Shown here: positions 8,766-57,400 of the stretch, piece by piece | Layout: every line of letters begins with the position of its first letter | Position numbering within the stretch: position 1 is the first letter of the stretch | NCBI GenBank assembly: GCA_009103225.1 | Contig: RHPI01000772.1 | Span: 446,558 to 510,557, forward strand | Reading direction: 5' to 3' | Origin: Chlorokybus atmophyticus | Taxonomy: Eukaryota; Plantae; Mesostigma and Chlorokybus algae | DNA: 64,000 bases | Made by a program: the position numbers and the translations under genes | Notes under the pieces: model-generated | Database searches by the model: none | The model's input: the letters and a program-made list of their open reading frames with translations, nothing else | What the model was told of the DNA's origin: nothing

Positions 8766-8809
8766 CCCCCCTGAGCTTCTGGAGAGGTTCTAGCTTTGGA
8801 GCTCAACTG

Positions 8810-26192: not shown

Positions 26193-26466
<274 letters not shown>

Positions 26467-29751: not shown

Positions 29752-31986
29752 CTGATGGTGAGTGCATGCTTCCTCGTGCACCAGTAATTGCGTGGTCGCC
29801 ATGCTCACAAATGCAAATGTTTGCAGGGGATAAGTGGACAACCATGGCTCCATCATGTCAACCGCTAAAGGCTGGCCTTAGCGTGTATACAACCGCGTAC
29901 GCAACCAAGTCATACATGGTGTGTTGCATGCTAGTCACCTCCTTGCCCTACAAGCGTTATGCCTCCAGAAACAAATGTTTCACAAAGTGTTTGCATGCAA
30001 TCATGCATGCAAAAGCAAGCATGCGTGTGTCCGTGTGTGCGGGAGGGGGGAAAGGGGGGGAGGGGCATACCTGAGGTAGGCTAGGCCAGGTGCATTCGCG
30101 ACGGCAAGGGCAAAAAGCGCCGCCGAAGCAGCAGCAGGTGTGAGACCGTAATCATGGCTGCACGCAGCCCCACTGCAGACTGCAGAGCAAGCAAGCATTA
30201 GCATGAAGGCGGGACAGCAAACACAAATGCACACAAGCGACACTGTATTGTATACATGTAATCTCTTTCTATCAACATTAAGCATACATACGCCTGATGG
30301 AGTGTGCCATCAAAGTCCCCATCGGGCATGACCACATGTACACCACTCGTTTGTTAATAAGCAATGCGTGTGTGGCAGCACATTGTAATAGTGACAGCTG
30401 AGAGTGTTTGGGGTGGATGATAGACTCTCAATTGTCTGCGCATACATGTGGCGTCACGGTGCTATTTTCTCACACACTTTGCTTGGCCATGGGTCACATC
30501 TAAAAAGGACTGCAAACACCATGGGTTCAACCTGAGACCAACTATAGCCTTTGGATAGGTCCACCATCCGCCTTTTAGAATGTGTCTTAATTAACTTTGA
30601 TGGGTTCCGTACAGACAAGCGATGACTATGACATAAACACAGATAAGGCACGGTCCTTTAGTCATGTTATGAGAGATCAGGAGTCCCAATCTCATGTCTT
30701 GGCAAGACTCGACTATCAGTGCACATTTCTGTAAGCAAGATGTGAGCAACGTCCACAAGGCCATGGACAGTAGTGCGTTTTTCGATAACAAAAACGCAGC
30801 AAAAAATGCGGAGCAGCTAGGCTACGCATGCAATTCTTACAATTACGTGTTTGTTACTAGGAACAAACACACAAGCCGAGCCCGCACAAGCACTCGACAC
30901 AACTATGGCAAGAGAGTGTTGGTAAGTTTCGTCCATTCGCATGGGTTGGCGATGCGACGGCAACGGCACTGGCAAGCTAGCACAGGGGCACAGAGCGGGT
31001 ATAGAAGAGTCCGACAAGAGAGTCTAACAACTTTCCCAAGTGCGGCACCTGCACGATTGTAGCAACCATTGGCACCGACAGCGACACCACCACTTGCAGC
31101 GGCGGCAAACACGNGGGGGGAGGGGGACATGCAGCAGCAATCAACATTGGGCTAGTGGCAACGCCACCAGCACCTGCAGCAACGACACGTGCAACACCAT
31201 CAGCATTAGCAGCAGATGCAACAGCGCGTGCGACACTTCCAGCGTCAGTCGCGGCATCAGCAGCAGCACCCACGAGCCCTGCGGAGCGGCAACATCAGAG
31301 CAATGATTTGCAGTTGCTCGTTGACAGTGGTAATAGCGAGCGCAGGCGACGGTGGTAATAGTGCTCGCAGCCACGGCCATTCGCCTCACCAAAAGACGAT
31401 AAGACGACGCGGTCCCCACTACGGCTGCAGCGGATGTTGCTGCTTTGACTCACGAGGATGTTGTGTAGTGGTTGTACGCGTGTGTAGTAGAGTTGATAGT
31501 GAGTTGTAATACCGCTAGCCCATGAACCCTTGCGTTTCCATGTAATACACATCATCATCATAATTGCGGTGGCGGACGATGTGATCTATGTGGACGTCCG
31601 CCTGTCCGCGGCTGAGTTAGCGTTGCATACCACTGCATGTTAAGATTGCCGTGTTTGTGCCGCATATGCTCGTGAGGCAGCACCAGCAGCGGAGGCGCGC
31701 TGCACGCCAGTGGTGCCGCCCCCAGCAGCTGCGTGGGTGTGGGTGCGGAGCCAAAAGCGCTCTTCACATGTGATCGACTTGTTCGGTTCCACCTATCAGA
31801 TGGCATGATGTGTCCTGCGGCGTGGTGGAGACCCCGTCCCACCACTTCGTCGAGTGTGCATACTAGCAATGGTTTCGTGGTGATTCCTTCTAGGAGGTGA
31901 ATTCTTCTCTCCTTCTCTTCTTGCTGTTTTTCCGCCCTCCTTGCCCCACTTCCAGAGGGCATGCATTGCGCATGCTGTGGGGCAAG

Positions 31987-32580
31987 TGTCATGCCTATCG
32001 CCCAAGCATGCCAGTCGTCATCGGGCATGCCTACAGCGAGACCCTCGCCCGGCTTACTAGCATGGCGACCCGCGCGCGTCTCTGACCAGTAGCTAGGTCA
32101 TGTCTCTAGAGTAGCTCATGACCATAGCCTACGTAGGCACCGCGCGTAGCTGTTCAGTTGTGAGTTCAGTTATAAATCAGGTTCTATATCGAGTGGGATT
32201 TCCTGTGGAAATAGCCTCGATATGACCGTTAGCTTATGTTCTGGACATGAGTTGACTTGTATAAGTAAGCACAGTGTTCACCGGATCAGCTGGTGACACT
32301 GTAAGTGAGAAAGCTAAGAGCTTGTGAAGCGATACGAAACACGCCGTCTCGGTTCCCAAGAATCCCCTCACCGTGTGAGAGCCTGTGCATGTTTTTGTGC
32401 ACTGTGCTTGTCTTTGCTGTGAGTTTTTGTGTACTTGGTCGCGGTGTGCTTGTTGGCATCAGTCAGGGCATAGCATCCACGTGTTGCTTGCTCATTCACC
32501 TCACTGAACAGTGTAATTTCTCTTCCACTCATGCAAAGAACTGTGTAAACAGCACTACCTACAGTAGTGGCTTGTTGACT
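31987..32580 (+). repeat. Element 2 5' terminal repeat A1
   Basis: Near-identical to 42220-42821. Confidence 0.95.
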
Positions 32581-32791
32581 TACAGTGTCACCCTCTTTGC
32601 TTACGTGAGTGTAGTTGCAGGCTGTACATCAGCATCGCAATCTGTAGTTGTACACATCGCAGTGCAGTGCTGTCACCGTCAGCGCATAGCGCGCACAAGC
32701 GCTAGTGTGTTGGGTGATAGCAACACTGGAGATCCCATTGTAGAGCACAAATACTCTACCCTTCATCCACTTTCACCATCGCATCAGCTGT

Positions 32792-35700
32792 ATGAGCAGG
32801 CCCACCCCTTTCTCGCCAATAGAAGAAGGGGACCTCAACAGCTGGAGCCCAACCTCCAACCTTACCTACGAGCGCGCAAGTGAAGGGAGCGATTTCCGTA
32901 GCAGCAGAGGCTCACGCCCCGTTTCCGGCTTCACCTCCTCTCACTCCACTCCTCGACAACGAGCATCTCCACCACCGTCGGACAGTGACGACGAGGAGAT
33001 GGAGCCTTCCAGCTCAACCAACTCCCTACGCTTCTCCGGACGCCCTGGCACCACCTCACTTGACGAGTTCATCATCAAGTTCCACTCCAAGATGCGGCAG
33101 CAAGCCCTCAAGAGCAAGGATTGGACAGATGAGGTATCGTTTCATGTGTCCGCTCAATACCTTGATCACGACGCACATAATGTGTGGAAGTCCGCCGCTG
33201 AGTTGCACAAGATTGATGGCTATGGCGAGTTGGCCAGCACAATAGCCTCCACGTCACTGCATAGCCCATCGGTTACTGTCCCTGTATCAGCGGCCCCGCC
33301 AGCCTTAGTCACGGGTCTCACTCTAGCTGCAGCCATGGAGAAGGCAGAGAATAAAGAAGTTGAGGTGGTAGTGGCCTCGTTGACTCCTGCAGAGATCGAA
33401 AGCAAGAAGGCCGAGCGCCGGATCAGGATACTCAACCGCACCGCTGCCATCATCAGGGAGCAACAAGAGGAGCAGCAAGCTGCAGCGTTGGAGATGGGTA
33501 CGCCCCTGCTACCAACACCGAACTCGCGTGCTCCAGCGGGAGGCAGTGTTTTCACCCTCGGCTCAGTGGCATTGCGTGCACCCGCGCTTACGGTGGGCGC
33601 GGCCATGTCGGACTCCCCGTTGAAGGACCTCTACGCCGCACTCCGGCGCACCTTCCCACCTCAAACCAACAGCAAGGTGGAGGAGTTGAGGCGTTTTCGA
33701 CGGAAGCCCAATGAGGACCCTCTCCGACTGTATTTACGGTTGGAAGGGTTGCTTAGGGACACTGATTACAAAATCGTCAGCGAGGAGGCGGCAGCAGTGG
33801 TGTATGTGGCCGAGTTAGATCCCACCCTGAGTGAGTCAACGCGCCTGACGCCGAACTACAGCAGGCCCCTCGGCTACACCCTCAAGGAAGCTTTCGCAAC
33901 TGCACAAGCCATCCACAAGCGCGCAGTGTATGAGAAAGCGGTGCTGGACACCAACCGCAGTGCCTCGCGGCCTATGGCAGGCACAAGTGCAGAGCCTCTT
34001 CGGCGAGACCGCAGCCGAGAGCCGCAAGGCATCCACAACAAGGATAAACGGTCAGCTCATGCTGCCCTTGTGGCTCCAGTGCTGTGCCACCGGTGTGGTC
34101 GACATGGCCACTACCAAAAGGAGTGCACCGAAGATTATGGCAACCTTGTGTGCGACTACTGCCACAAGACGGGACACTTGGAGACAGTATGCTGGCTCGA
34201 GTTCCCTGAGCTGCGGCCCTCTATTGGCTACAACAACGGCAACAACGCTGTTGGCTACCGCGGCAACAACAACAACAACAACGGGGGCTACAACAACAGC
34301 CACCACGCTGGCGGCTACAACAACAGCAACAACGCTAGTTGTCGCAACAATGGCAACAACGCTGGTGGCCACAACCGCAACAACAACAACATTGCTGGCG
34401 CCCGAGAAGCTGGCTACAGAGGGAAAAACCGCCCTCCATAGCACAAAGGATTTGAGGGACTTCCTCGCGCTGGAGCTGCTGCTGTAAAGGCACCAGCCAA
34501 CCCACCAGCTATTAACCAAGTGGCAGCCCTGATGGCGCGCGTGGCACAGCTGGAGGAGAATAAGGAGCAGGACTATCAAGCCTGCTATGCTGCTAGGTGG
34601 GCACTGATGGCACCAAAACGGGATAGGGACACTCCCACGCCGTCACGCGTACAACCATCAAGACGTGCGCGCAGAGAAGCTGGCGCGTCGTCAACATCGG
34701 CATCGTCGGACGCCACAAGTGGTGCTGCCTCGGCAGCCACAACCACCGCTGGGACGACGCCGTCGACGACACCGTCGGCGTCCACACCGACCACGACAGC
34801 AGGTGTCAGCACTTTTGGCACCACGCTGTCCCCGGTAATGGAGAGCACCCACGCCGCAACAACCATGGTCGTTGGGTTCGTAAGTGGTGAATCCACCACT
34901 CCTGCCTCCATCGACAGCGACCACATCGGCCGCAACTGCTGCCACCCTCACAGCCGCCACCTCAGTAACGACGACTGCTGCAGGTGCCACCACCATCGTC
35001 TCCAGTAGTGCTGCCACACCCACTGCGCCACTTCCTGAGATTCGAACAGCACCGCCACCAGCGCTTGACGTCACACAGCAAGTGCCACGCGGACCACAAG
35101 CAAAACGCGCCTGGGCGTCGGTTCTACGCAATGTGGAGCCCACCACCATTGCGTACGGACCAGGGGGGCAACGCACCACGCGCGTGGCACGCGATGATCG
35201 CATCTTGCCCCTACCACCTCCAGAGTACCACACGCTGCCGGAACCCACACAACAGCAGCTGGAGGATGAAATCCTCGCCGGCACTGCGCCAGAAATGAGG
35301 GAGCGTCTCTTCGGGGTCACCTACCGGCGACCTGCAGTATTGGAGCTGGTCATTCAGTTGTTCTTGGCATTACACGCACAATTGCAAGGCGCACCCAGTC
35401 AAACGCGGCAACCCATGCCCGCTCAACAGATTGACTTCGAGCCTTCGCCACTGGACCCACTCGGACTTCAGCGCCACAAAATACAAGACCTCGTGGTCAC
35501 CATGTTAGACATCGCGCTGGGCACTGATCCCGCTCTCCGGGGGCTCACTCCAGGCAGTCGTCAAGAGCGTTTCTCGGCTCTCGAACAGGCACATCGTTAT
35601 CAGGTGGACTAAGCTGCCCAAGTGGACGCTCGCCGACGGGCGTACGAAGCCGCACACGCCGTTATCGTACCAACCGTAGCTTCGACAGATGTTGCCAGCG

Positions 35701-36728
35701 CCTCCACAACGCTGACAATAGGGTACTCCACGGCAGTCGCCATCGAACAGCCAGGGCAAGCAACTGTTGCAGACCAAGCGAGGGCGTTGGCACAATTGAG
35801 GGGGGTAATCGCCCCGCTGCTGCCTTCTTTGGTCGAAGACATGCCCGAGGATCAACGCGATGCAGTGCGAGGGTACCTCACCCCGCAAGGGGACACCACA
35901 AAACGAGGAGGAGCTGGTATGGTGGGGGAGCAACAACTCCGTACCGCACTCATCCGGCAAGCAGTCATGTTGCACAGGCCTGAGGGCAACACGTTGAGAC
36001 AGATAATGGGGATGCAAGAGGGCAGCGCCGCTCGTGCCCGTCTCGTGACATGGCTCGTTGCCAATCACCCTACTGTCCCCCTGTTTGCCTTTGGCAACCG
36101 AGCATCATGGTTGGGGGCGTTCGTTCGTTCGCTGCGCCAAGCATACGACGAGGCTGCCACCACAGCCCCGGACACGCTGGAGGGAATGCAAGAGGCAATG
36201 CTGCGGCTGCCAGGGGTGGAAGCCGCACGACAACGGCGGCGCATCGCCATTGCTCATGAGCTACACGCACAGCAGACTGACCTCCAGCGCACCCTACGCG
36301 CGCGCGACATGACCGTGCTCGATGTGGGAGTGGTACAAGGAAGGTGGGATGCCTATATGGCAGGGATCTTGCGAGTCCCCACCATCACTCACGACATGCG
36401 GCGACAGCTACTACGCGCCGTATACCTGCAGCCCATGCCTCAATATCATCATTGGATCGACACGGACACCGAGCCCACGGCCACGTGGGAAGGGACGTTG
36501 GTCAGAGATGCAGCTCATGCTGTCCGATGGACGTACGCCGCGGAGCAAGCTGAACGCGAGGCAGGCCCACAAACAGCGGGGCCGCCGGGGTTTCCTCCAC
36601 AGTCATTGGGTACACCCGCGGGCATGATTCCATCTTCGCAAAGGCGGCATCCACTTGCGCCGCCACCACAACCAGCGCCAGAACCTCCAGCACTGAGGCC
36701 CCCCCGTGTCTACCAACCACCACGCTAA
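32792..36728 (+). pseudogene. Element 2 Gag-like ORF with two CCHC zinc knuckles, followed by a Thr/Ala-rich linker and a long unassigned domain; premature stops and one frameshift
   Basis: CHRCGRHGHYQKEC, CDYCHKTGHLETVC; stops at 34439, 35610, 36726; homologous to element 1. Confidence 0.87.
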
Positions 36729-36800
36729 GGTCGGTTCGGCAGAGGGAGAGAGCAAGGAGGGGGTTCTCCGGACCCAGCAGGCAGAGGAGCTCTGGCTGCA

Positions 36801-37331
36801 ATGCGCTCAGCACCCCCAGCTGAGAGAACAGAGGCAAAGGTGCAGACAGCTCGTATGAAGAGGCTGCGTATCGACGCCAACGCTGCCATGGTGGCCAACC
36901 AAGGCAAGCACGTTACCATCAACGGCCTGGCACCCAAGCGAGTAATGTTGGACACCGGAGCACAGCCTGTCATCATCGGGCGCTTCCTCGCGCAGTCTCT
37001 CGGCATAACCAGCTCCGACTTGGTGCCTTGCCCGTACGTGTTGGACACTGCCACAGGTAGCCGAGATAAGGTGATGGGAGTCACCAGGGAGGCCTTCTGC
37101 ATTCGGTTGACAGGGCTGGACCCAACCCACACAACCGAGATTGTCCGGCAATGTGTGGTCACCAATGCCGGCTCCTTCGACTTTTGCTTGGGCAGGACTT
37201 CAACTTTCCTGTGGGCATGGGCCTCGATTGCTGGACAGAGCGAGCGTGGTTTCGGCCACATTGGGGATGAGGATGACGGGGAGGTGCAGGGTTTCCTGCC
37301 TCTCGAGTTGGCCTCGCGCACGCGCGCCTAG
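36801..37331 (+). pseudogene. Element 2 aspartic protease
   Basis: RVMLDTGAQPVII (DTG at 36951-36959). Confidence 0.9.
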
Positions 37332-37679
37332 CGCAGAGTGGCTGCCGTGGCCACACGCAGCCACGCCCGCACACGGCAGGCTGCAATGGCCACATACGAC
37401 GGCGCTCGGACGCAATTCGCTGCTGGTGCCACGGTCCCGTGTCGGACCGTCGACTCCTCTCCCACCCCGTACAACGAGGAGCAGGAGGATGCCACCGTGG
37501 AAGTGGCATTACAAGACTCAGCTGAACGGCGCTGGCGTGCACAGGTGGACGCACACATCTTGCTCAGCCATCCATTGATCACCACGCGCTTCCCCAACTA
37601 CCGAAGCCACATCAAGGTGCAGGACCACCATATGGTGGCCACCGGAGTGGTGGAGTTCCACACCTCTCGCAGGCAGCAG

Positions 37680-38640
37680 GGCATCATAGTGTTGGAGCTG
37701 TTCGGAGGCATTGGCAGTGGTCTTGCTGCGGTCCTCAACACAGGGGTAAAGGTTGTCAAATACTATTACTGCGACCCGGACCCACACGCTCAGATAGCCC
37801 TGGAACACCACTTACGCCAACTGCACGAAAGGTATTCACGTCAAATACCCCTCTCGGCGTTGCAAGGCAGCCTCAAAGCATTGCCACAAGACATCCGGCT
37901 GATCACTGAGGATCACCTACTGTCCCTAGGCAACGTCGACCTGTTAATAGCTGGGTGGGAATGCCAAGGGCACTGCAGGGCAGGGGCACAGCCTCGAAAA
38001 CCCTCGCTCCGGGCTGTTTTGAGAGCTGATGAGAATCATCCACCTCCTTCAACACCACCAGATCTCCAGACCCCTGGGGTACGTCATTGAAAATGTGCAT
38101 TCAGAGGACGACAGGCGTCCGCACGTGGTCTTCAGCTACCGACAAGTTTGCTCCATTCTAGGGCACCCACTCAAGGTGAACGCTGCACGACATGGCTCGC
38201 GCGCACATCGTGTACGTGCCAAGTGGACAAACTTGGCCACCGTGGAAGAACTCATGACCGCAGAATACACGCGCAGCGCTCGGCCGCGCGACCTGCTGGT
38301 CAGTGACATCCTTGACCCCGGCCGCACAGCACAACCTGTCCTGCGTCATGACCACCACCACTTCTACCCGTGCAATCAGCCAGGGCAGCCCCGTCGCGCA
38401 CTGCCCACATTGGTGTCCTACCAAGGCTCCTACGCATTCCGGAACGGTGGTGATGGGATGGTGTTTGATGCGACCACCAACAGGTTGAAGGAACCCAACG
38501 CGCGCGAACGTGAACGCGCCATGGGATTCTTCCCCAACAGCATCACGGGTTCATCGCTGACAGATAGTCAGCAATGCCAGCTGCCTGGCCGCGCCATGGA
38601 CCAAAACAGCATGGTATGGTTGCTGGAGCTTGGCTTCGCA
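37680..38640 (+). pseudogene. Element 2 C5 cytosine DNA methyltransferase domain between protease and RT (one frameshift near 37985)
   Basis: Motif I VLELFGGIGSG, motif IV DLLIAGWECQGH, motif VI YVIENV, motif VIII AHRVRAKWTN, motif X-like GRAMD. Confidence 0.92.
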
Positions 38641-39080
38641 TTACAAGACTGCCACGTGTCCTTCAAGGATCTCGAACACTTGGCTGGGGGGTGGGCTGAT
38701 CGCGAAGTCGACACCAAGGCAGCTCACACAGCCCTCGAGGTGGTCCACATGGAGGAGCAAGCAGCAGTGACAGTGGAGGACATTCCCGTGGTCGCCAACG
38801 CAACCTCCTGGGACCATGCCATTGGCCCGTTGGCCACAAAAGACACTCGAGAGAAGCTGGAGACTCTCCTCAACAATTGGAGGAGCCAATTCAGCTTCAA
38901 TGTGAAGGAATTGGGGACATGCTCAATGTACCAGATGGACATCGAGCTGGTGGACACTGAGCCGGTGTTCCGACGGCAATACAGGCTCTCCAAGTTGGAA
39001 GAGGACTTGGTGGAACAGAGATGTAAGGCGCTGCTTGATGCAGGCCTTATCAAAGAGTCCACATCGGAGCAGCAACCGTC

Positions 39081-40210
39081 ATGCCACTGAAGAAGGATTC
39101 AGCAGGCAACTGGACAAAGCGACGCATGTGTGGCGACTATCGCCCCCTCAACAACAAGACCAAGCAAGACAAGTACCCCATGCCCACAGCGGAGGGTATC
39201 TTTAATGATGTGGGAGACTGCACAGTCTTCAGCATCCTGGACATGCGTCAAGGGTACAACCAAATCGCCATCAAGGACGAGGACAAGCACAAGACCTCCT
39301 TCTGGGGCATCCGACAGTTGTACCAATGGAAGGTAATGCCGTTCGGGCTGAAGAACGCCCCCGCCAAGTTTCAACGCGTCATGGACAAGGCCTTGAAGGG
39401 GCTGGACTGCGCGCGGTGCTACATCAATGACATCCTCATCTTCAGCCGCAGCAGCGAGGAGCATCTTCAGCACATCGAAGCGGTGCTGGAACGACTCAAG
39501 GGAGTGGGGATGACCGTACACCCTGACAAGTGTACCTTCTTCACCCACAAGGTGCCGTACTTAGGGCACATGATTGTGCCCCATGGTGTGTATGTGCAGC
39601 AGGCAAAAGTAGAGGCTCTGGCAGCTATCCCTGCCCCGACAGACCTCACACGTCTGCGCGCTTTCTTGGGACTTGCCAACTACTATCGCCGGTTCGTGAA
39701 GGACGTCGCGAAGATCGCCAGACCCTCAACGAGCTACTGAAGAAGGAGGTGGAGTTCGCATGGCTTGAGCCGCAACAGCAGGCCTTCGAGGAGCTGAAGA
39801 GCAGGCTCACCAGCGCTCCCATCATTCAACGTCCGGACTACGCCAAGCCTTTCATCCTTTACACCGACTGGAGCAAGCTGGGGATGGGAGCGGTGCTGGT
39901 GCAGCACGATGAGAACAAGAAGGAGCGGGTGGTGTCATACGCCAGCCGAAGCAACAACAGCGCCGAGGCCAACTACAGCAGCTACGAAGGGGAGTGCCTC
40001 GCTGCAGTGTGGGCCATCTCCTTCTTCCGACCTTTCCTCTTTGGTCGACAGTTTCAATTGATCACCGATCATCAGCCCCTCAAGTGGCTGATGACCAACC
40101 AACACCTGACAGGGAAACTTGCTCGATGGGCCCTGCTGTTGCAGGAATACGACTTCGAGATCGACCACCGCGTTGGCCTTACCAACCAGAACGCCGATGG
40201 CCTCAGTCGC
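39081..40210 (+). pseudogene. Element 2 reverse transcriptase and RNase H
   Basis: RMCGDYRPLN, YPMP, LDMRQGYNQI, MPFGLKNAP, YIND (YIDD in element 1), FLGLANYYRRFV, YTDWS, ITDHQPLKWL. Confidence 0.96.
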
Positions 40211-40626
40211 AACCCTCACCTCAGCACCAACGACGCAACTGGAGCTCGGCATGAGCTCGTCCCTGCAGCAACAGCCCCCACCATAGCAGCCATGCTGCTG
40301 CCGCGTTGCGCTCAGGGCGCAAGACCAACACCACGGCCTCAGCAATAGCAGAGGAAATTCCTGCCCTTGAGCCAAAAGACTCTGCTACAACCACACCCTT
40401 GGGAGACGCCCACGCAGCCGACATTGACGTCGATAACACAGAGCTGGCGCCCACTGACACCAGGCAGGACATATGGCAAGACAAGCCATCACTCTCCTTT
40501 CTTCAAAGTGGCCAGCTTCCCTCCGGCATGAGCGCCCGAGAGAAGGACCGAGTCAACCAATGCACCCGTCACTATTGATGGGTAGGTGACAAGCTGTATC
40601 GCCGCTTCCACGACGAAGACAAGGAA

Positions 40627-41931
40627 GTGCCGACCCCGGTCACGCGCGAGGGCATCATCACTTCCCTCCACACTGAGCTTGGACACTTCGGTGTCAAGCG
40701 TACAGTCAGCCTAGTGAGGGCACAATATTGGTGGTATGGATTAACAAAACACGTGCAGGGGTTCGTCAGCCACTGCCAACAGTGTGACATGGTGCGCGCC
40801 AGCCTCAATACGCATAGCGCCACCTTGCACCCACTCCCCATCTCCGGTCTCTTTTATCGATGGGGACTCGACATATTGGGGGACTTGGCACCCTCAGCAC
40901 GTGGCAACCGGTACATCCTGGTCATGATCGAGCACTTCTCCAAATGGGTGGAGCTGGTACCATTACCCGATAAGAGCAGCAGGGGGGTGTCTCAAGCCTT
41001 CCTCTCTCACGTTCTCAGCCGATTTGGCAGCTGCGCCGAGGTCATCACTGACCAAGGTACTGAGTTCAGAGGGGAATTCGACACCCTCTTGGACAATTGT
41101 TACATCGACCACCGCCGTACCTCGCGTGATCACCCTCAAGCCGACGGCCTCGCCGAGCGTACAATACAGACCATTAAGAAGGCACTCCGCAAGTACGTGC
41201 TGGAGTACGAGAAGAACACTTGGGATGATCACCTCCCGTGGGTGGCCCTCGGGTATCGATTGTCAAAGCAGGCGGCTCTGCGGGAGTACAGCCCGTACTA
41301 CCTGCTGTTCGGGCGACCACCATTGCTCCCCTTCCGTGCGCAGCAGGAGGTGGATCACGTCGTGAACAACCTCGACGACCCTGACTGGATGCACCACTAC
41401 ATCACCACGCGCGCTGCGCTTTTCGAGCACACCGTCCCCATGGCCTTCAACAACCTGCGCATTGCGCAGCATCGCGACACGCTGCGCTACGAGCGCGTAC
41501 GCAGCGGCTTCTACAACGAGCGCCAACGGCGGTTCCAAGCGGGGGACTTTGCCTATCGCATGGCAGCCACCGTAGACACGCTTGACACCTCCGTAGGCCG
41601 CACCGTCTACAAGGTACTTAAAGTGTACCCCACAGGGGTGCTGGACCTCCTTGGTTAGAACGGAGAGAGGTTGAAGGACAACATGGTAAACTGTGCGCCA
41701 TGTCACCTTCCTTATGTAGCCGGCTTCGGGCGTATTCAGCACCCTCGTCCCGCGCGCAGCACACGCTGTGAACGCTGCGGCAGCGCCAACGACGACGCAC
41801 TCATGATGCTCTGCGATGGCTGCAACAAGGGCCTGCATTGCTACTGCCTGGAGCCACCTCGGGACGCGATACCTATGGAGGAGTATTGGTGCGACGATTG
41901 CCGTACCAACGGCCCTCCTCACTTGCGCTAG
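40627..41931 (+). pseudogene. Element 2 DDE integrase with C-terminal PHD finger (in-frame TAG at 41656)
   Basis: H..LGH...C..C; WGLDILG, ITDQGTEF, DGLAER; C4HC3 CERC..CDGC..H.YC..WCDDC. Confidence 0.95.
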
Positions 41932-41976
41932 CAGCTGAGCTCTGGAGCTGGATCCTCCTCCAGAGCCCAGGGGGGG

Positions 41977-43039
41977 TGGCTTGTTGACTTTGTGTGCTAC
42001 AGCACAGCATGTACACTAGGGAGAACACCGACTCCACCTGCCCGTACTACCCAGCAGCAGCAGACCAGCTGCACAGAGCACTTGTCACCATGAGGGTTGG
42101 GGTCATCTTTTGCTTTTGCTGCACGTTGCACAGGTGGCGCAGCAGCATGTCCAGCAGGCATGGCTGTCCATGCAGCTGTCCAAGACAGCGTGACCCTCGA
42201 CTCCCCTCGACCCGACAGCTGTCATGCCTATCGCCCAAGCATGCCAGTCGTCATCGGGCATGCCTACAGCGAGACCCTCGCCCGGCTTACCAGCATGGCG
42301 ACCCGCGCGCGTCTTTGACCAGTAGCTAGGTCATGTCTCTAGAGTAGCTCATAACCATAGCCTACATAGGCACCGCGCGTAGCTGTTCAGTTGTGAGTTC
42401 AGTTATAAGTCAGGTTCTATATCGAGTGGGATTTCCTGTGGAGCCTCGATATGACCGTTAGCTTACGTTCTGGACAGTCATGAGTTGACTTGTATAAGTA
42501 AGCACAGTGTTCACCGGATCAGCTGGTGACACTGTAAGTGAGAAAGCTAAGAGCTTGTGAAGCGACTTGAAACTACGAAACACGCCGTCCTGGTTCCCAA
42601 GAATCCCCTCACCGTGTGAGAGCCTGTGCATGTTCTTGTGCACTGTGCTTGTCTTTGCTGTGAGTTTTTGTGTACTTGGTCGCGGTGTGCTTGTTGGCAT
42701 CAGTCAGGGCATAGCAATCACGTGTTGCTTGCTCATTCACCTCACTTAACAGTGTAATTTCTCTTCCACTCATGCAAAGAACTGTGTAAACAGCACTACC
42801 TATAGTAGTGGCTTGTTGACTTTGTGTGCTACAGCACAGCATGTACACTAGGGAGAACACCGACTCCACCTGCCCGTACTACCCAGCAGCAGCAGACCAG
42901 CTGCACAGAGCACTTGTCACCATGAGGGTTGGGGTCATCTTTTGCTTTTGCTGCACGTTGCACAGGTGGCGCAGCCGCATGTCCAGCAGGAATGGCTGTC
43001 CATGCAGCTGTCCGAGACAGCGTGACCCTCGACCCGACA
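41977..43039 (+). repeat. Element 2 3' terminal block B1 (41977-42217) - GC - A2 (42220-42821) - B2 (42809-43039)
   Basis: Direct sequence comparison; purine tract AGGGGGGG at 41969-41976 precedes B1. Confidence 0.95.
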
Positions 43040-43744
43040 CAAGCTTTTCCCACTTGTCTTATGCATATGGTACATGTGGCTCTCCCGGAATCGCTCATGC
43101 TTCAACAACGTTTCCTCTTCCACTCTTTGCAAACATCATGCTGATGGCTAAGGGAGATTGGCACCGAGTGCTCCCCTTAACTAGCTCAAACAACAAACGC
43201 TTGTTCGCCTTCCAGTAATAAAAACCCACCTGGGGCAGAAGCGACCTACTGTGTTCCTCTTCTTGGTCCCTCCCATTCCCTCGTGTTTCCTGGCATTCCC
43301 TCCCCTCCCCTCGGCTAGAAAACCTTAACTAGCTTGCTATCTTCATTAATCTTCGCTCACGCTATACCCATCATAGCTACTCATCATGTACTTGCATTTC
43401 AGCATGTGCATGTGTAGCCAGCTCTCCTTTCGCAACTCCTAAACTCTGCCTTCGGGCCCCTTAATCAATTGCATTTTGTGTGCAAAAAGGGAAAAAGAGA
43501 GAAGGCTCTATGAGCATGGCATGATTTGGATTGAAGGTTTGAAAAAGCCCACGAGGAGCACCGCAAGGCCGTCAATGACGCATCACAATTGAGCAAGAGA
43601 GTGGCAACTGCTGTGAAGATTTTTGCAGCTGTCATTCGCCCTCTGATTTGAAAGACAAGCATTAATGAGAGTAGCACAGCTTACAGTCTTCGTTTTTGAG
43701 CAGGGGGGGGGGGGGGCGGGGGCACCACCTCACTTGACGAGTTC

Positions 43745-45201: not shown

Positions 45202-48143
45202 CACCGGTAGAAATGGGTTTCGGTAAGTCAGACTGGATCCGCAACTTTGTAATGCACGGAGCCGGACATTATTTGCGGGTTTTGCAAATTTCACGGCGGA
45301 TCCGTAAACACGTTGTAGCTGTAGCCAGATTTTTGTCAAGACCTGACACAAACGGCAATCCGCCGGTGACGATCGTACGTACCAGATCCCCAACAATGTT
45401 GAGGATTGGCATTACTTTATTAAGGGTTCAGGTTGTGAAAAAGACTTGTGTAAATTGTAATTGGGATTGTGACTAGTTTATTAACAATGCGTTCACTCCC
45501 TAACGCAATTGAGAACTCGACGATAATATGTAAATGCATTTAACTTACATGCTGAAGTTGTAGACGACATCATTAAAATTGTGACCGGTTCCATCAGCGA
45601 GAGTTCATGCTTAACAAGGTTAAAACGCTAAGTTCGTTACTTTTCCATTGTTACAAACCGTAATGTGTTTTGTCGACCTCACCCCGTGGCCTATTCATGG
45701 CTTGCCCTGCGGCCTGCACCAGCAGGTGACGCATGGAGCTTAATGCAAACAGCTGCCGGTCATTTTGCGCTATAATTGTTCAAAATGGCAAGTAGATCGA
45801 AGTCTTCATCCCTAAGTGGTAAATTCCACCTTCACCTTTTTTCCTACAACAAGCCACTGGTACCGGTAGTTGTGCCTGTATGTATATGTGTGTATATATA
45901 TATATACATGTCTATACTATGTATTTATGTATACAACTAGCGGTGCGGCTGATTGGGCGGGACTGGGGCGGCCGGGAGGCCGGCATTAGGGCACAAAGAC
46001 ACATCACACGCGCACCACAAGAGCCATCACATACGGCACCCGCGACTACTTGCCTGCCGCCCATACCGCGCAGCCCGCCTGCCTCTGATTGGTTAGGCGG
46101 CAATTATCAGCTTTCGTCCATTCGCTTTATGGAACAGATTTTACCCTTTAATAGCACATCCCCCTGTCATGCAATTGCTCAAAGTATATGCGAATGAACA
46201 ATAGATTCATTCACATTGAGCACATCATGCACGATGTTAATAACTGTACTGTACAACGCACACATATGCGTCATGTGGGCGTTGTATTGTACAAGTAATG
46301 TTTCAATGTGATCAGGTACAACTGTGTACTTGTACTGTATAGTCTACCCCCTTTAAGAGCATACTGTTTATCCTTTAAGATCGTATGCTCTTGGCTGGGT
46401 TATGCTCTTGGCGTCTAAGCATAATATGCTCTTGAACAGCCAGAGCATATATATGCTATAAACGCGGATTCATTACGCCCATCTCGCCCATTACGTCACG
46501 CGCATCACGTCGATGTTGCCATCACATTCATTACGCTAGTTACGCGTCGCACTTTACCCATCACGCCTTGCCCATCATGCTCATCACGCCTTATGCCACA
46601 CCCGTCATATGCTACTCCCTCGATGTTTAAAATATGCACAATTGAACTTGCAAGACTTTTATGGAAAAAAATATGTTCTTTACGGTTAGTCATATTTTCT
46701 TAAGCACTAACGTTTGCCTATAAACTCTTTGGTAATCTCAAATTGTGCCCCCCGGGCCATCACACAACCAGGTGCCCGCGATTGGAAGATTATCGGGGCC
46801 GAACAACGCCCCGGCCCCGCCTGTCTGATTGGCTATCAGCCTTTGACTGTTCGATCTGTTCAACACTTGACCGTCCTAAACGCATCCACGTCATGCAACT
46901 GCTCATATATACGCCAAATAAATATGAGTAAAAAATGAGCACAACAAGGTGCACATGTGGCGGCACATTATTTCATATGGTATGGGCATGTAACACACTT
47001 ACTAAGGTAGTAAATTAAACAATAACATTTTGACCAGGTTACGTGCAGCGGTTCACAGTGCATAACGCAAAGGCTACGAATAGCAAAATAATGCTAACTT
47101 TAAACGCCTTATCGTTATATTTTAACTAAACGGCATATAGCGCCGTTGGACCATCGTTTAATTGTATAAACTATATAGCACATGGTGTGTAATTTTGTTA
47201 AGGGCTGTTGCCACAAAAAGGCAAAAAAATGCCATTATTTGCAAATATACTCATAAATATTTCGAAGGCATCTCAACGGCAACGCCATTCCTAATGGCAA
47301 GTCCGAGTACGGGCTTTGGGCGCTAACTTCGTGACAGTTAGCGATAATACACGCGCGTTTTGGGTGGTACGAGGTCGGGGCGGCCCCCCTACCCCAAACT
47401 TCTGCCGCCATCATTAACCATCACTTTAATTGTTTCACACCCTACCACTTAACACCAACCATTAACCGCTAACATAAAAGGGGCAGGAAACATGGCTTGA
47501 GCCGAATTAATAGTATGCATGCCGGTAGTTGCAACTACACATAAGAAACGTCGTACAGTACACGTGTATGTATACACGTACCGTGTATTTACATAATGCC
47601 GATGTATTCAGCTGTTGGTGCATGCATCGCGTAATACATTATTGCAAACATCTGGCTTAAAGGCAGCCACTGCTGAAGGATAAACAGTATGATGTGCAAC
47701 ACGGCCCTGACCAACTCGTGTCGTCATAGTCCAATTGGTCAATGCCTAAGTTATGTATAGTTGGCTTACCGTCTTGGCCGCTATACCCGCGCAGGTGCAA
47801 CTTCCGGTGGTGTAGCAATCGCTTGTTGGTGATGCATACTTTGTTTTTGCCGCAAGCTGCGGCCATGTCACTAGGATCCATCTCCTTAATGCGCGATCTA
47901 ACCAACCGGAAATTATCAAAGGATGTGACCATTGTTAAGTTCATGAAAAGACGGACCGAACTTAATGCACGCCATCTACTTTACCTTGATGGCTGCTGGA
48001 TACCGAACCAAGTTGTAACTAAGGCAGGCAAAGAGGCAGAAAGTAGTACCTTGATTGCCATCAGATACGTAATTTAGTTATGGCTGTATCTCTGACCAAG
48101 TTGTGGTCAGAACCAAACTATTGAGGGGCCATTTCCACCGGTG
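45202..48143. mobile_element. TIR element family X, copy 3, split by a ~1.6 kb unrelated insertion at its TA-rich tract
   Basis: TIRs CACCGGTAGAAATGG / CCATTTCCACCGGTG (14 of 15 match); 45202-45850 and 47560-48143 are homologous to the two halves of 20901-22424. Confidence 0.65.
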
Positions 48144-49001
48144 CAAGTGGAGATGTGCTTGTAGAGAACTCCTCTTGAAGTTGCCATGATGGTGGATCTA
48201 CCTGCAGGCTATGGCAGGGCTTTGGTTGAACTCATCATGTTTGCAGTCCTGTAAGATGTGAACCATGGCCAAGCAAAGTGTGTGAAGAAATGACACCATG
48301 ACGCCACATGCATGCGCAGACAATTGAGAGTCTATCATCCACCCCTGGCGCTCTCAGCACTACTATGGCACTATTACAATGTGCTGCCACACAAGCATTG
48401 CATATTGACAAACGAGTGGTGTACATGTGGTCATGCCCAATGCGGACTTTGATGTCACAACACTCCATCAGGCGTATGTATGCCTAGTGTTGATAGAAAG
48501 AGATCACAAGTACACAACACAGTGTCGCTTGTGTGGGTTTGTGTTTGCTGTCCCGTCTTCGTGCTAATGCTTGCTTGCTATGCAGTTTGCAGTGGGGCTG
48601 CTTGCAGCCATGATTGCGGTCTCACACCTGCTGCTGCTTCGGTGGTGCTCTTTGCCCTTGCCGTCGCGAGTGCACCTGGCCTAGCCTGCCTCAGGTATGC
48701 CCCTCCCCCCCCCCTCCCCCCCATCACGCACACACGGACACACGCGCGCTCTTTTGCATGCATGATAGCATGTACTTTGTGAGGATTTGTTTCTGGAGGC
48801 ATAATGCTTGTAGGGCAAGGAGGTGACTAGCATGCAACACACCGTGTATGCCTTGGTTGCGTACACGGTTGCCTGCAGGCTAAGGCCAGCCTTTAGCGGT
48901 TGACATGATGGAACCTGGTTGTCCACTCATCCCCTGCAAACATTTGCATTTGTCAGACCACGCAGATAAATGTGCACGAGGGAGCATGCGCTCACCATCA
49001 G

Positions 49002-52000
49002 CTAATAGAACAGGGCGATGCTGCCGCCCGGGGGGGGAGTCACAATGTGCACGGGACGGTTGCCACGAGTGGCAACCCCTGTCGCAGCACACGGCTTGCG
49101 CTTGTCTTCATCGCTGCTGCCAGAAACTGCAAGACAAGCGTCAAGCTCCGCCTTGCCCACCAGCTATGACAATTCCACATACGCCGTTGCATCGCTGCTG
49201 TCGAAGTTCAACACGTTCATCGCGCTGAAGAAAAGGTAGTTTGCGTTGACAATTGTAAATGTAAGAGGGGAGGGTGAGAGCGCATGGTGGAACGCAGAGN
49301 NNNNNNNNNNNNNNNNNNNNNNNNNNNNNNNNNNNNNNNNNNNNNNNNNNNNNNNNNNNNNNNNNNNNNNNNNNNNNNNNNNNNNNNNNNNNNNNNNNNN
49401 NNNNNNNNNNNNNNNNNNNNNNNNNNNNNNNNNNNNNNNNNNNNNNNNNNNNNNNNNNNNNNNNNNNNNNNNNNNNNNNNNNNNNNNNNNNNNNNNNNNN
49501 NNNNNNNNNNNNNNNNNNNNNNNNNNGGGGGGGGGGGGGGCACAAGGCTTACTCGCTGGAGCTTAGTATGCTATGGCGTCCACTTGCAACCCAAGTGGGC
49601 GACTGCTGAGGATGGGCACGGGCCCTTCTCCAAATATGTTGAACACCGACAGCAGTGGCCCATCACGCACGTAATCAACACAAACAGCCTCTTGTGTACT
49701 GTCGTCATCAACCATGTGGTTAGCAGTGCTTATGGATCATAGTTTGCGTCGGTGCGCGTGCGCGTGCGTGTGTTCACATCTGCACCTTGGTCGAAGGACA
49801 TAAACCTGACACAAAAATCCCAGCTGCTGGTTGGTAATTGAGCGCTGATCGGGAGAGATGGCTCCGTAGCTGACCGAGCAGGTTGGATGCGCGCCATATG
49901 GATCCTGCCAACCCCACGACACCCTGCGCGGCATCACTGCAAGCCCCATAATACACAAGCACATGTAAGAGTCTCATCGCATGGCTTGGGCTTAGAAGTT
50001 AAAATGATGCAAGGAATGCACGCGCGCGAACGTGCGCATGCGCGTGCTTGCGTGCGCATGTATGTGTGTGTGTGTGGTGGTGGTGGTGGTGGGTGGGTGG
50101 TGGGGTGGTGGTGGGGTGGTGGTGGTGGTGGTGGGGGAGGGGGCGAGCGTGTGCACATGTGAGTGTATTTATGAATGTGCGTGCGCGCGTGACTGTGTGC
50201 GCATTCGCGGGCGTGCATATGTGCGCGCGTGTAAGCCTAAGCGTGAGCTTGAGGGTGTGTGCGCGTGCGGGTGTGCATGTGCGCAAGCACGCGGTCATCA
50301 CGGTCGGAGATGAGAGTGGGGACTTCTTCTTAGCAGCCCCACCCCCCGTGCCCCTCCGTGGGTGCCCACATTTCCTCTCTCCCAATGCCCGCTTCCCTCC
50401 CTGCTGCATTCTAAGGACCTGCTACACAAAAGCAATACTACCAGCAGTTGCTCACAAGCATGGTGAATCACACACTTTTTGCATCTGTGCTGTCACACAC
50501 GCACCTGAGGAATCGACAACAGTGCTGTACAACGCATCCCATGTGTATGCATATGGGGGTCTGTAGCCTTCATACTGGTAATCTTCATACACAACCAGGA
50601 CCACCGCCTCGGGCCAGGTGGCAGTCTGTACGGCAAAATGCGTGACATACGAGAATCCATCTCCAGCTGGATATTGAGCCGCAAAGTACACGTACTCCTT
50701 TCCGCTATCTGCATCACCACAAGAGAGCCATGAGATGTCTGTACAATGCATTGCGCTCCCTCGCACTCTCCCGAGCAAGCTGTCTCACCATCCACATCAA
50801 CAGCAAACGTATTGTAGTAAGTGTAGTCAACATTGATAAGAACGGGTTGGGCAAAGCGCGAGCTGCGCTGGTAGCGGTCAGGATGCCATGCCGCAGGCTT
50901 GCGAAACACCCCCGCGGCGTAATTGGAGCAGTTGCGCCCCCAAAAGTAAATGTTCTCTGCATGCATTGCATACGCTCAAGGTTCAAGCAGGCATCCTGGC
51001 ATTGTTTCATATGCGCACCTCTGTGTCTCTCACACACGTACCTCCTACGACTTGAAGGTTGCCAGCGTAACCGTAATAGCTACTACCGATAGCTTCCACG
51101 CTGTGGGGAGAGTAAGGGTAGGTGCAGGCTTCAAGCACCGTCACACTACGGCCAGTTGCATCGTTCCAAAAGGCAATCTCCAACCTCCTTCCAAACTCGT
51201 CATCATACGCTTGCTTGCCGGCGGGGACGGGCTTGGTGTAGAATAGCCGCCGCAGCGAGGGTGCAGCGGAGGGAAATGGGCACGTTGGCGATACAGGTGT
51301 TTGCGCCGGTGCAAGGCAAAAGTTGCCAAGGGCATAAGTGGAGGCATCCTGTGGATCGTCCACAGAGGCGAGGCTTGGGGAAGAGTCATAAGGGCCCTGT
51401 GGATAGCTTCCTTGCCGGCTTGTGCAGGTAACGTTGTTGCTGATAGGATACGCTATGGCCGCAGCACTGCATGGCGCTGATGCAGGGACATACACGTCGC
51501 AGTGCACTGAGAAGGTCACACTGTGGTAGTCGTTATAATAAGGCGCCACGGGGGTGTTTTTCGCGCGTTCGACTTGAGCATATTGGTCTGTCATATAGAC
51601 ATTGGGGAAGCTGAATGTGCCATCTGCATTCGTAGTTGTCGACTGGCTGGAGTGCAACAACACCGGAGGGTACGCATAGTAATATTCATCCTCGTAATAA
51701 ACATGGACATACGTTGTGCAATTCAAATGAAAAAGTGTGGACATATGGGGAGCCTTGACTCAGTAGGTCCTGGCTCTCACCCACTGCTGAGGGGATTTGC
51801 CTGCCCTTAGCACCGAAGCGTACCTCGCCGCGCGAGACGGGGACTTGGATGCCGCTGTTGCACTTGTCGCAGAACAGTCGTCCAGAAATCACAGCCGTGG
51901 CAGCTGCACAACGCATGGGTGAAGTTGTTGTCAGCACCAGAAAGCGTGCCTAACAACTGGTGCGATACAAGGAGAAAGCCAACACACTGTCATGCAAGAA

Positions 52001-52370
52001 GAGGAAGCCTCCTCCTCCTTTTTCTCTGAAGACAAGGGAAAGGAGGGGGGCTCCGAATGTTCATGCTCATGTTTATGTCCATGTTTCATGCATGTCGCCT
52101 CTCTTTGTCATGTTGACAGCTGCAACTGGATGAATGCATTGGGACAGAAGTACTACAACCTTGCCACAATGCTGCCAGAGTGTTGGCCAGACACGCCATC
52201 CAGCTTCATCCATTTCTTAAACTGCACTTGTGCATTCACTTTGCCACCAAACCGGACTGACCAAGACCAGAAGTACGAGGCACGCGCAATGCCTCGCAGT
52301 TCTTCTCACCAGCAGTGAGGGGCTGGACGAGCAAAACCAGCAGCGCCGCCGCCACGCGCATCAGTGCCAT
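49002..52370 (-). pseudogene. Inverted paralog of the 26648 gene; damaged (lost intron-2 acceptor, paired frameshifts, premature TAA at 49563-49565)
   Basis: Exon-by-exon homology, with ATG at 52370 and MALMRVAAALLVLLVQPLTA; flanking homology ~24700-30580 vs ~53000-48190. Confidence 0.75.
49300..49526. other. Assembly gap (227 N) in the intron homologous to the 29196 gap
   Basis: N run beside poly-G. Confidence 0.98.
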
Positions 52371-52555
52371 GATTGCCTGCGCACTCCCTGTTGTCGTGTC
52401 AGAGCCGCAAGGTCCTCCACACACGCTTCTTGCTGAAAGAAGTGAGGGGCGAAATGAGTGCGAGCGTGCACACACACGGGCAACTGCAGAGAGCTCACAA
52501 TCACCACCAAGCACGCAGAGCGGGGGTCAATACGCGCGGAGCTAGGCACCAGCAG

Positions 52556-52597
<42 letters not shown>

Positions 52598-54459: not shown

Positions 54460-57400
54460 NGTTGCTGTATAGCGTCATGCGCATGTGCGCACCGTCCTAT
54501 GCCGTGGGGTGAGCTGGGCGACAAGGAGATGGGCTCCACCTCTCTTGGCACATGCACAGCCAATGAATACACTCACGTCTAGCACACATACATGCATGCA
54601 CATAGACACCTGCTCACTTGCAGGCATCCCCCCCCTCTTCTCTGGCGTGAACTCTGAGCTCACATCACGCACGTACGCGCGCACACACACACACACTTAA
54701 CTGAACTGTTTGCGTGCATGTGCGTGCCATTGCTGTTTGTGCTGCTGTACAAGGGCGACAAGCAGTTGGTCTCCACCTCCTCCAGCACTACACTAAGGTA
54801 GAGTGACACGCACACGCACACATGTGGCTTGTACATTGTCCTTCATTGTCATGCGCATATTCTACGCGGACACAGACACATGTGCAAGCATGAGCACGCG
54901 CTTTCACGCACAGTCACATGTGGCCATGCGGACAACTGTGTGCCTGCACACACGCAACCATGCGAGCACACACGCACCAGCATGCAACTGCACACATGAG
55001 TGCATGCGGGTGTCCATCGCAAATGATGATGCAGCACCCCCCTGCTGCTGCCTGTCTTTGCTAACAACGCCACTGGCAGCGTGTATGTGCATGTGTTTGT
55101 AATTCACGGGCTGAGCCTGTCAGTTTTACACACACAAGCACATTCACGCTGTAGTGGCCTGACCCCGCTGTCGTGCGCACACGCGCATACGCGTGGTGGT
55201 CACCTCCTCTGGCAGCACCGCTGGGGCGGGGGTGGCCTGCCTTGCCTACACATCCACTTCAAGCCTGATGGTGAGCACAAGGACATGTTTTTGTTAATGA
55301 TGTTGTTGTTGTAAGCGTGCAGACATGAGTTGTACTGTGATTGTTCATCTTGCGCTGCAGTCGAAGTCGAAGGCGAGCGGTAGCATTTGACGGCCGTTCA
55401 CGGCACCACAACAGAGCAAGGTGGCATTGTGTTGACTGTAATGATCTCAAAAGTTAGGTGTGTGTGCATGTGGGCACACGCATACGCACATGCGCGCGCG
55501 CACACACATTTGGAAAAAGGGCGCGCTGACTGACTCGCAAGCACGCATGCGCGCATGCACAACAAATCCCCAGACACATGCACGCAGGCGGGACCTTGAG
55601 GATGGGACCATTCTCAACAACGGTTGACAGGCTAGGTCCTCGCCAACCTCTCCTTGGGGAAGCCTACTACTCTACTCCATCTACTTTACTCTAATCTACT
55701 GTACTCCATCGCTGCAGGTTTTTAGCCTCCTCGCCGATAGTGGTAGTGTGTAATAGTGTGCGCACGCGCATACACACAAATGCACGCATGCATATACCAA
55801 TTGTACACACCTGCCACTCGGCTACGCACACGCACACACAACGTGTATATCAATGCGTGTCAGTCAATAGCAACGTAGCATGCGCGCTAATATTACATAA
55901 ACTCCTTCTGCCACACAGCTATACGGTATATGCTGGGCTGGGTGTACGTTCAAGCCCAAAGTATCAATCAACAAGCTTTGGTTCCAAAGAGCTCACTTGA
56001 CTTTGATGTTGATGGCAGTGTTACTGTAACATAGATTGCATATTGCAAATCGAACAGTTGTCGATTGAATGCTAATTGTAATTTGGGTCAACAAAAGCGT
56101 TTTCACACGTATTGTACACGTATTGTACAATGTGACAAGCATGCGTATACTTAACTGACAGTTTGCATGGCTTTTATATTGCATGATGAGAAAAATTGCA
56201 TGTTTATGCACAAGCTCTGTAGCAAAGTATTACATATATCGTGGATGCACTTTGCTCACAAGAATGTATAACGATCACCGCGGAAAACTGCATGAAAGTG
56301 GATGTGACCACTACAAGGAGCTTGCATTGTTAACGTATTTGCAAGCAACAATGCTGCAAATTTAAAACTTTTATAATTTGTTACAAGTTGATTGTGCTAA
56401 TACACATACATTTATGACATGGTTGTAAGCAATGTATACAAAGTGTACAATGTATGCAAAGTACTACGATGGAGGTGTGCTAAACGTATAACAATCTTTT
56501 TTATTATGGAAATTACAATTGCTGTAAAATTGTGAAGTATAAGCCTGTACCATGCGTATGCCATCATCATTCGTATTTACATACGAACGCATGCATGTCA
56601 TGCAAATGACTGTATATACCAAGAATGTTATCTTATTATATGCACAGCTACAACTGATTATACATGAAATCAATAAAGACATGTATAAACAACGGCATTC
56701 AAATGGCAATGCTGCGATTGAGAACTTTGAAGCTCAGCATTTTTGCTGTGCAACTGCAAATGGTCCGCTGAAGTTGTTACGTGTGCACGCGTCATGCAAA
56801 TAGTGACTTTGCGAAAGTCGCTAACCCTGTTCCGGTTACTGGCGGTCAGGCCATTGGGACGTTAGCAATTGATAACGGAGTATTGTGACGTTGCACCATT
56901 GAGCCTTCTAAGAATTGATGGATTCGTTGCTATTTTGCCCCGATGAACATGCGCACGAATTACTCCGTACAATCCCCGATGACCGAGTTTCGGGGGGCCC
57001 TTCGGGCCCTCAACCCACCATTTCACTCGTCAACCCCCTCGAGCGAGTGAATAAAAACCATCAGGGGTTAGGGTTAGCGGTGACTTTGCGGAAGTCGCCA
57101 ACCCTAAACCCCTGACAAATCTGTACTTATATGCATACTCCTAAGTACGCAATTTTCACTTACAGTGTCATTACCGTATCGAGACTAAGTCTCAAGTCTT
57201 CATAGTTAAGTGATAATTGCTCAGTCATAAGCTAATGGCTAGTTTTGTTTATAAAGTGACCAAACGCGGGGTAAGTCAACTCAAAATGGATCAGCTAGTA
57301 CAGGCTAATGCACTGGTACTAGGTGCCTACTAACACTAACTCACAACTGCTCAATGTCGCGTGGGACCCATGCCAATAGCCGGGGTCGATGCATGGTTGT

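Follow-up and report, generated by a model that had tools for sequence, protein, structure and literature searches.

A conserved internal palindrome as the likely integrase attachment site of a split-repeat Gypsy element in Chlorokybus atmophyticus

In LTR retrotransposons and retroviruses it is a linear cDNA that is inserted by its ends; circular forms are regarded as dead ends or, for HIV-1, as a back-up (PMC4372172). The palindrome at the 2-LTR junction is cut by integrase tetramers in HIV-1 (eight bases) and by the integrase of foamy virus (six bases), and circles of this kind are able to insert (PMC1905944, PMC4372172). This is a back-up route, and its palindrome arises from ligated cDNA ends (PMC1905944, PMC4372172). 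Split direct repeats in the order A1-B1-A2-B2 are known from the tyrosine-recombinase retrotransposons PAT, TOC and Ngaro (PMC4157794). KnitGypsy-Dnmt3 of Klebsormidium nitens combines an A-B-A-B layout with Gypsy domains and a DNA methyltransferase (DNMT), as given in one figure-legend sentence that offers no mechanism (PMC5890265), and the Gypsy-DNMT3 group is mentioned only in passing in the available text of a 2026 preprint (10.64898/2026.05.21.726589). Tf1/Sushi and Tcn1 elements have a primer site complementary to the predicted 5' end of their own RNA and use no tRNA; they insert as LTR-internal-LTR, mostly with chromodomains (PMC4600332, PMC6317226).

Where a DDE integrase and split repeats occur together, which molecule is inserted, and where is it cut? 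The literature covered, with Repbase Reports and most subscription journals outside its scope, gave no account of integration through an internal palindrome, nor of the palindrome or self-primer of such elements. The A-B-A-B layout with Gypsy domains is already published; new here are a self-primer inside A, predicted cDNA ends at B...A and a conserved palindrome with a fixed spacer.

Layout and coding content of E2

E2 is a ~11-kb Gypsy element with the layout A-internal-B-A-B, at 31987-43039 of the window (the whole 64,000-nucleotide stretch of C. atmophyticus DNA analysed). All features of E2 lie on the plus strand. It ends in TGTC...GACA and is enclosed by a 4-bp target-site duplication (TSD), CAAG, whose left copy lies at 31983-31986 and whose right copy lies at 43040-43043. 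Repeat A1 (31987-32580) starts with TGTC, probably holds the end of U3, R and U5, and shows 13 differences in 590 aligned nt from A2 (42220-42821). B1 (41977-42217) and B2 (42809-43039), which differ at 3 of 231 nt, both end in GACA. Short tandem CGAC-containing repeats precede the terminal GACA of B (42180-42217; 1960-2003 in related locus L002) and are possible integrase binding sites; one copy of B in L044 stops at an inner unit of this kind.

The gene order is gag-PR-DNMT-RT-RH-DDE integrase-PHD, and the copies in the window are decayed. A gag-like frame with a zinc knuckle (32744-34441) matches PF00098 at E=0.0013, just under its cut-off. Frames without assigned function follow (34884-36728), with no Pfam family and a best Atlas score of 0.75, which gave no lead; the frame at 35613-36725 likewise has no Pfam match and no Atlas lead. 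The aspartic protease (36729-37331; PF13650, E=1e-7) is succeeded by a frameshift-broken, DNMT3-like C5 cytosine methyltransferase (37560-38640), with weak PDB matches to DNMT3C/3A/3B (E 0.02-0.9) and no PDB match in its second half. This frame is 50% identical to a frame of L008 that bears PF00145 (E=1.8e-13). Reverse transcriptase and RNase H (39039-40348; PF00078, PF17917) survive in pieces. The integrase (40579-41658) has H2C2 and rve Pfam domains and the triad D98, D158 and E193 of the frame, and a PHD finger (41659-41931; PF00628, E=5.5e-10) lies 3' of it, after a stop codon in the E2 copy. No tyrosine recombinase family of Pfam was found in 11 forward pieces, in 11 further frames in or beside E2 on either strand, or in 7 long frames of L008, L029 and L033. 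The searched frames of E2 and its relatives contain no chromodomain either; the PHD finger stands behind the integrase.

E2 differs from PAT, TOC and Ngaro, whose repeat layout it shares (PMC4157794), in lacking a tyrosine recombinase and in having a DDE integrase in Gypsy order, a protease, a purine tract and a 4-bp TSD. The intact D,D,E triad and the 4-bp TSD at TGTC/GACA also bear out a sequence-only reading of this locus, which had assigned its ends to a DDE integrase acting at CA. Of the Ty3/Gypsy features, E2 shows the PR-RT-RH-INT order, the DDE integrase, TG..CA ends, a TSD in the 4-5-bp range, a primer site and a purine tract, but not two whole terminal LTRs abutting primer site and purine tract; it is a Gypsy element by its proteins and not a canonical one by its structure. 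With KnitGypsy-Dnmt3 it shares the Gypsy domains, the DNMT3-like methyltransferase inside pol (a weak PDB match if taken alone) and the DIRS-type repeat layout (PMC5890265). Proteins of K. nitens are the best and 15th integrase matches (55% and 47% identical), and named relatives occur in Klebsormidium, Calypogeia, Closterium and Pseudoscourfieldia. By domains, layout and best integrase matches, E2 is probably a new member of the Gypsy-DNMT3 group. On ends, TSD, palindrome, priming site and mechanism the available text on KnitGypsy-Dnmt3 is silent (PMC5890265).

Two related elements lie nearby. E1 (7718-20769, minus strand) is a second subfamily, ~80% identical and of the same layout, inserted in the integrase gene of E3 with a TSD, AGT, of 3 nt, or of 4 nt with one T lost. 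The 3' part of E1 is duplicated at 61646-64000 (minus strand). E3, an older third family, is represented by its 3' part with integrase-PHD remains (3598-5800, minus strand); its integrase reading frame runs on across the empty site of the E1 insertion (7718/20770). An ordinary LTR element at 9912-11960, within the integrase gene of E1, has TG..CA repeats of ~458 nt that are 97.6% alike and a 5-bp TSD, CAAGG, and provides a canonical contrast to E1 and E2 in the same window. A TRIM-like mini-element (4295-4792) in A2 of E3 consists of two 90-nt TGT..ACA repeats 408 nt apart. The window further holds a segmental duplication of ~10 kb (56-10059 and 54461-64000; 97-99% identical) beside a GA microsatellite, which may be an assembly haplotype; an inverted duplicate (26421-30568 and 48188-52597; 85-92% alike) of an intron-containing coding region with two frames without a Pfam family; and a dispersed repeat family (5888-7528, 20901-22449, 45202-45839, 47895-48163; 73-86% alike) that interrupts E3.

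Relatives were gathered with a profile of 37 integrases, which gave 487 metagenome stretches; the best 80 of the 487, mostly from low-GC hosts and of two families, were kept. The viral sequence collection yielded no relative. In L033 (4860-11402) and L049 the methyltransferase lies between RNase H and integrase rather than before the reverse transcriptase, and extra coding sequence follows the PHD finger. L029 has no methyltransferase match and keeps a near-perfect palindrome. L008, L029 and L033 retain open pol frames and are naturally intact in this respect.

Self-priming and the predicted cDNA ends

The site directly 3' of A1 (32578-32592), at the boundary with the internal region, is a perfect 15-nt complement of GGTGACACTGTAAGT at 32292-32306, the predicted RNA 5' end, and none of 20000 shuffles reached 14 nt. 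A TATA-like box, TATAAG (32260-32265), lies 32 nt before this self-primer. Among the best 80 of 487 stretches, 7 of the 13 loci with A1 and leader have the same arrangement in unrelated sequence, with a complement of 11-17 nt placed 26-34 nt below a TATA box; the complement is shorter than 11 nt in the other 6, which are decayed. L008 has a complement of 16 nt and L031 one of 14 nt, while no self-primer was found in L030 and no clear one in L029. In two public runs, contigs (4 of X1 and 2 of X2) carry the 11-nt core of the E2 primer site after A. In E1 the self-primer sequence was located in A2 (8216-8230, minus strand), as the complement of 20167-20181; the pairing differs from that of E2 by a compensatory A-T to G-C change, and the A1 copy of E1 lacks 2 nt. 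The 15-nt complement with its compensatory change is, at the level of sequence, the signature of Tf1-type self-priming. What sets E2 apart from Tf1/Sushi and Tcn1 is its PHD finger, its DNMT and its split LTR.

The possibility that TGGCTTG.. is a tRNA primer site was rejected, since the sequence does not resemble a tRNA 3' end and the self-complement accounts for the site; the window contains no tRNA gene for comparison. The complement ends in AGT in 4 of the 5 families compared and in ATT in the fifth (32303-32306; L008, L031, L079), possibly a signal for the priming cut.

These features predict the ends of the cDNA. The TATA box and self-primer, 160-305 nt inside A in E2 and the related loci, would place the RNA start within A, so that the cDNA would read B-A-internal-B-A, as the sequence-only reading had it. 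That reading had also placed a purine tract before B1, and a run of seven G (41970-41976) does lie directly 5' of B1, where it is predicted to set the left cDNA end. With the self-primer in A and the purine tract before B setting the cDNA ends at B...A, the true LTR would be B-GC-A. The linear cDNA is thus predicted to run from purine tract to primer site as B-GC-A-internal-B-GC-A, with a right end at 32578-32592 whose exact position is fixed only within the 11-15 nt range of primer lengths, and its ends would differ from those found inserted.

The palindrome and the two repeat junctions

The sequence-only reading had described the B1/A2 junction as the right end of the element, GC and its left end, and end comparison agrees. 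GACAGCTGTC at 42214-42223 (no strand) consists of the B end (..CCCGACA, the same as the right end of E2 at 43039), GC and the A start TGTCATGCC (the same as the left end at 31987). Exact copies in the 64-kb window lie here, at 8524-8533 in E1 (no strand) and at 62459-62468, against a chance expectation of 0.07, and 0 of 100 shuffles reached 3 copies. The recurrences were correctly located, but the third is no independent insertion: its segment duplicates 3155-10059 at 96.9% identity with an identical right flank, and the three exact matches therefore represent two insertions. A further copy with one transition had been proposed at ~4940-4948. This is a real junction, that of E3, where the purine tract (5163-5169), B1 (4945-5162), the junction GACAGCTATT (4939-4948), A2 (3817-4942) and B2 (3598-3816, ending in GACA) follow one another on the minus strand; it has two transitions against the 10-mer and one only in the 9-mer originally quoted. 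Palindromes of 10 bp of any sequence number 140 in the window and are common as such, and the signal lies in position and conservation, not in mere presence. GACAACTGTC at 44334 was rejected as a further junction, since it sits at the end of a PHD coding remnant and at no repeat junction. A hairpin at the start of A was likewise rejected as a general feature, being significant in only 1 of 6 sequences.

Four public runs hold related DNA, as assembled contigs too short to phase A and B or reach the ends; an X2 contig with a depth of 59.7 covers the B1/A2 junction of E2 without any difference. Across families whose integrases are 43-63% identical, GACA-GC-TGTC was exact in 6 of the 9 sequences compared and carried 1-2 changes in the other 3. 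The A and B repeats of those families have no blastn match outside the junction, save one low-complexity stretch of 20-33 nt. Related loci totalling 801 kb contain 5 exact matches, each of them downstream of an integrase. Within 600-2000 nt 3' of the integrase, no clear palindrome was seen in L016, L018, L030, L049, L068 and L076, and four further loci were too short.

How constant are the two junctions within a family? After removal of same-site loci from the best 80 of 487 stretches, the purine tract is followed by B-A-B at 23 sites, 17 sites stop after B1, A2 runs into foreign DNA at 3 and B1 is eroded at 3. In the main related family the palindrome has a 2-nt spacer at all 20 of the 20 unique sites (GC 6, AC 6, GT 4, AT 3, TC 1; two rows scored after a 2-nt shift of the printed register), and 19 of the 20 are GC or its transition products. 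The A2/B2 junctions of the same 20 sites comprise 11 different 14-nt strings, some of which may be point mutations. Most form a graded series in which A has lost 0-4 nt, and larger deletions occur as well; such a ragged join resembles the scar that end-joining would leave. In E2, A2 and B2 are joined through a 13-nt overlap, TGGCTTGTTGACT (42809-42821), which also ends A1 (32568-32580) and starts B1 (41977-41989), and B1 of E1 reads TGGCTTGTTAACT, a 12/13 match. The earlier proposal that joining proceeds through this overlap may hold for E2 and is not supported as a rule, for the best-sampled relatives join A2 to B2 with 0-3 nt and have no 13-nt overlap. In 11 of 18 copies (L001 and L052, incomplete, excluded) the B1 nearest to B2 is that of the same copy, and own B1/B2 pairs share 120 minority alleles, against 50 (maximum 79) in 300 permutations. 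This likeness would be expected if B2 were remade from B1 in each round; it can also stem from gene conversion or kinship.

TSDs were compared in the 9 related loci of the same 80 stretches that retain both ends. They are exact and 4 bp long in L019, L034, L079 and L027, have one mismatch in L020 and L022 and are absent from L039, while the ends of L024 and L025 are eroded.

Insertion through the palindrome and the order of events

Fixed spacer, conserved palindrome, TSDs and ragged A2/B2 join together make it likely (a probability of about 0.8) that the integrase cuts at the internal palindrome and that the original cDNA ends are joined by end-joining. Read from inserted copies, the palindrome would be an integrase attachment site moved from the cDNA ends into the LTR; that it is so, and is cut in a circular copy, we hold to be an evenly balanced proposition. 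The RNA would start ~305 nt into A1 and prime its own reverse transcription as in Tf1, and ordinary LTR reverse transcription would then give linear B-GC-A-internal-B-GC-A, whose ends are not attachment sites. End-joining of these ends, over 13 nt in E2 and 0-3 nt elsewhere, would leave the A2/B2 scar. Integrase would nick both strands after the CA of GACA-GC-TGTC, yielding two CA-3'OH ends with 2-nt 5' overhangs, which would be inserted. Ends of this form have the shape of processed retroviral ends. In copy-out paste-in elements of the IS3/IS30 type a DDE enzyme cleaves a circle where the element ends abut across a 2-3-bp spacer; unlike E2, these are DNA transposons without reverse transcription, and their junction is made by the transposase.

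The proposed cut resembles retroviral 2-LTR junction cleavage, where the DDE integrase likewise acts on an internal CA..TG palindrome and its cleavage product is competent for insertion (PMC1905944, PMC4372172). In E2, by contrast, the LTR itself encodes the palindrome, away from the point where the cDNA ends would be ligated, and cutting there seems to be the only route. The CA-NN-TG form that the sequence-only reading took for that of 2-LTR circle junctions in general fits the six-base foamy-virus junction and not the eight-base one of HIV-1.

The inserted products limit how symmetric such a circle can be. Among both-ended copies in the window and the best 80 of 487 stretches, 7 are A-internal-B-A-B (L019, L020, L022, L034, L079, E1, E2), 4 are A-internal-B (L024, L025, L027, L039) and none is the mirror product A-B-A-internal-B (0 vs 7, p=0.016, in a small sample); 15 of the 17 single-B copies have no visible 5' end, which keeps the sample small. 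A two-repeat circle holds two palindromes and would be expected to give the mirror product as often, and its absence speaks against the symmetric circle of the sequence-only reading. A preference for the upstream palindrome has to be added ad hoc. Speculatively, the upstream copy may be favoured through becoming double-stranded ~9 kb of synthesis before the downstream one, since plus-strand strong-stop DNA would complete the upstream LTR well before plus-strand synthesis has covered the intervening 9 kb. One-repeat circles would yield frequent A-internal-B copies. Over a 900-nt stretch, the divergence of single-B and two-repeat copies is 0.074 and 0.071 (p=0.88; 18 and 15 copies of the main family, excluding the second family and copies with indels there), and the two kinds are intermixed on the tree. 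Equal age and mixing fit copies that arose on insertion, one-repeat circles being one possible source, and single-B copies may also be later B-by-B deletions or assembly collapses. At L008 (8546-9040), L031 (1452-2305) and L029 (1-9171), purine tract, B, palindrome, A and leader follow one another with a single repeat; these are collapsed assemblies or one-repeat circles, and the L029 contig has identical 123-nt ends.

Must a circle come before integration? The inserted structure is the same if the integrase cuts the upstream palindrome in linear cDNA and inserts both of its halves, after which host repair connects the loose ends of A and B with no circle involved. The junction, TSD and priming evidence fits this order equally well, and deletions across A2/B2 (L021, L034, L055) agree with it. 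In L044 and L064, A2 lacks a following B2 and gives way to foreign DNA where the cDNA is predicted to end, and joining after insertion fits these two better. The cost is a double-strand break to be repaired at every insertion, and the same upstream preference is required; A-internal-B with a clean TSD, as in L027, would need added circles, double cutting or later recombination. Joining first, into a circle, is an even call, and cutting first is doubtful. The uncut attachment site and integrated circle of the sequence-only reading are in keeping with the palindrome retained across distant families, the tendency of B2 to copy its own B1 and the ragged A2/B2 join, although cutting followed by repair would produce an identical structure.

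That the palindrome is never cut is improbable. On this account extra template jumps would yield a linear cDNA that already reads A-internal-B-A-B and has ordinary ends. The palindrome would be a mere master copy from which both ends are regenerated; its conservation and the missing mirror product would then be explained, and the inserted ends and TSD do look ordinary. However, no priming site defines TGTC or GACA, both of which abut host DNA, while purine tract and primer site define the ends of B and A, and there would be no need for the spacer to be fixed at 2 nt, as it is in 20 of 20 sites, unless the two halves were engaged at the same time. Slightly less probable still is a cycle like that of PAT and Ngaro, with which the repeat layout agrees (PMC4157794, PMC5890265): an RNA spanning A1 to B2, with B1/A2 as template for a new B/A circle junction, an inherited A2/B2 and a DDE integrase in place of the tyrosine recombinase. 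The TATA box and self-primer within A, the purine tract before B1 and an A2/B2 join that is ragged and not inherited all speak against it. A repeat-rich and nested window might suggest an assembly artefact, or ordinary LTR elements nested by chance. Both can be dismissed: the layout recurs in two subfamilies and one older family of the window as well as at 23 unique sites from other hosts, TSDs enclose whole units, a public-run contig crosses the junction and the layout is published for K. nitens (PMC5890265).

If the integrase does cut at the internal palindrome, these elements would provide a natural system with internal cutting as the normal route, testable by one point mutation, and would explain a repeat layout published without a mechanism in the available text (PMC5890265). 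An internal cutter with site specificity that inserts circles may likewise be of interest for genome engineering. Programs that find LTRs expect paired terminal repeats and would likely miss or misfile a high-copy green-plant clade of this kind. In its widest form, which these sequence comparisons leave tentative and a little short of even, a widespread green-plant Gypsy clade would prime itself, circularize its cDNA and insert only via a hard-wired internal palindrome, with circles as the obligatory substrate. DIRS-like split repeats would then arise without a tyrosine recombinase, and there would be a second way to split direct repeats.
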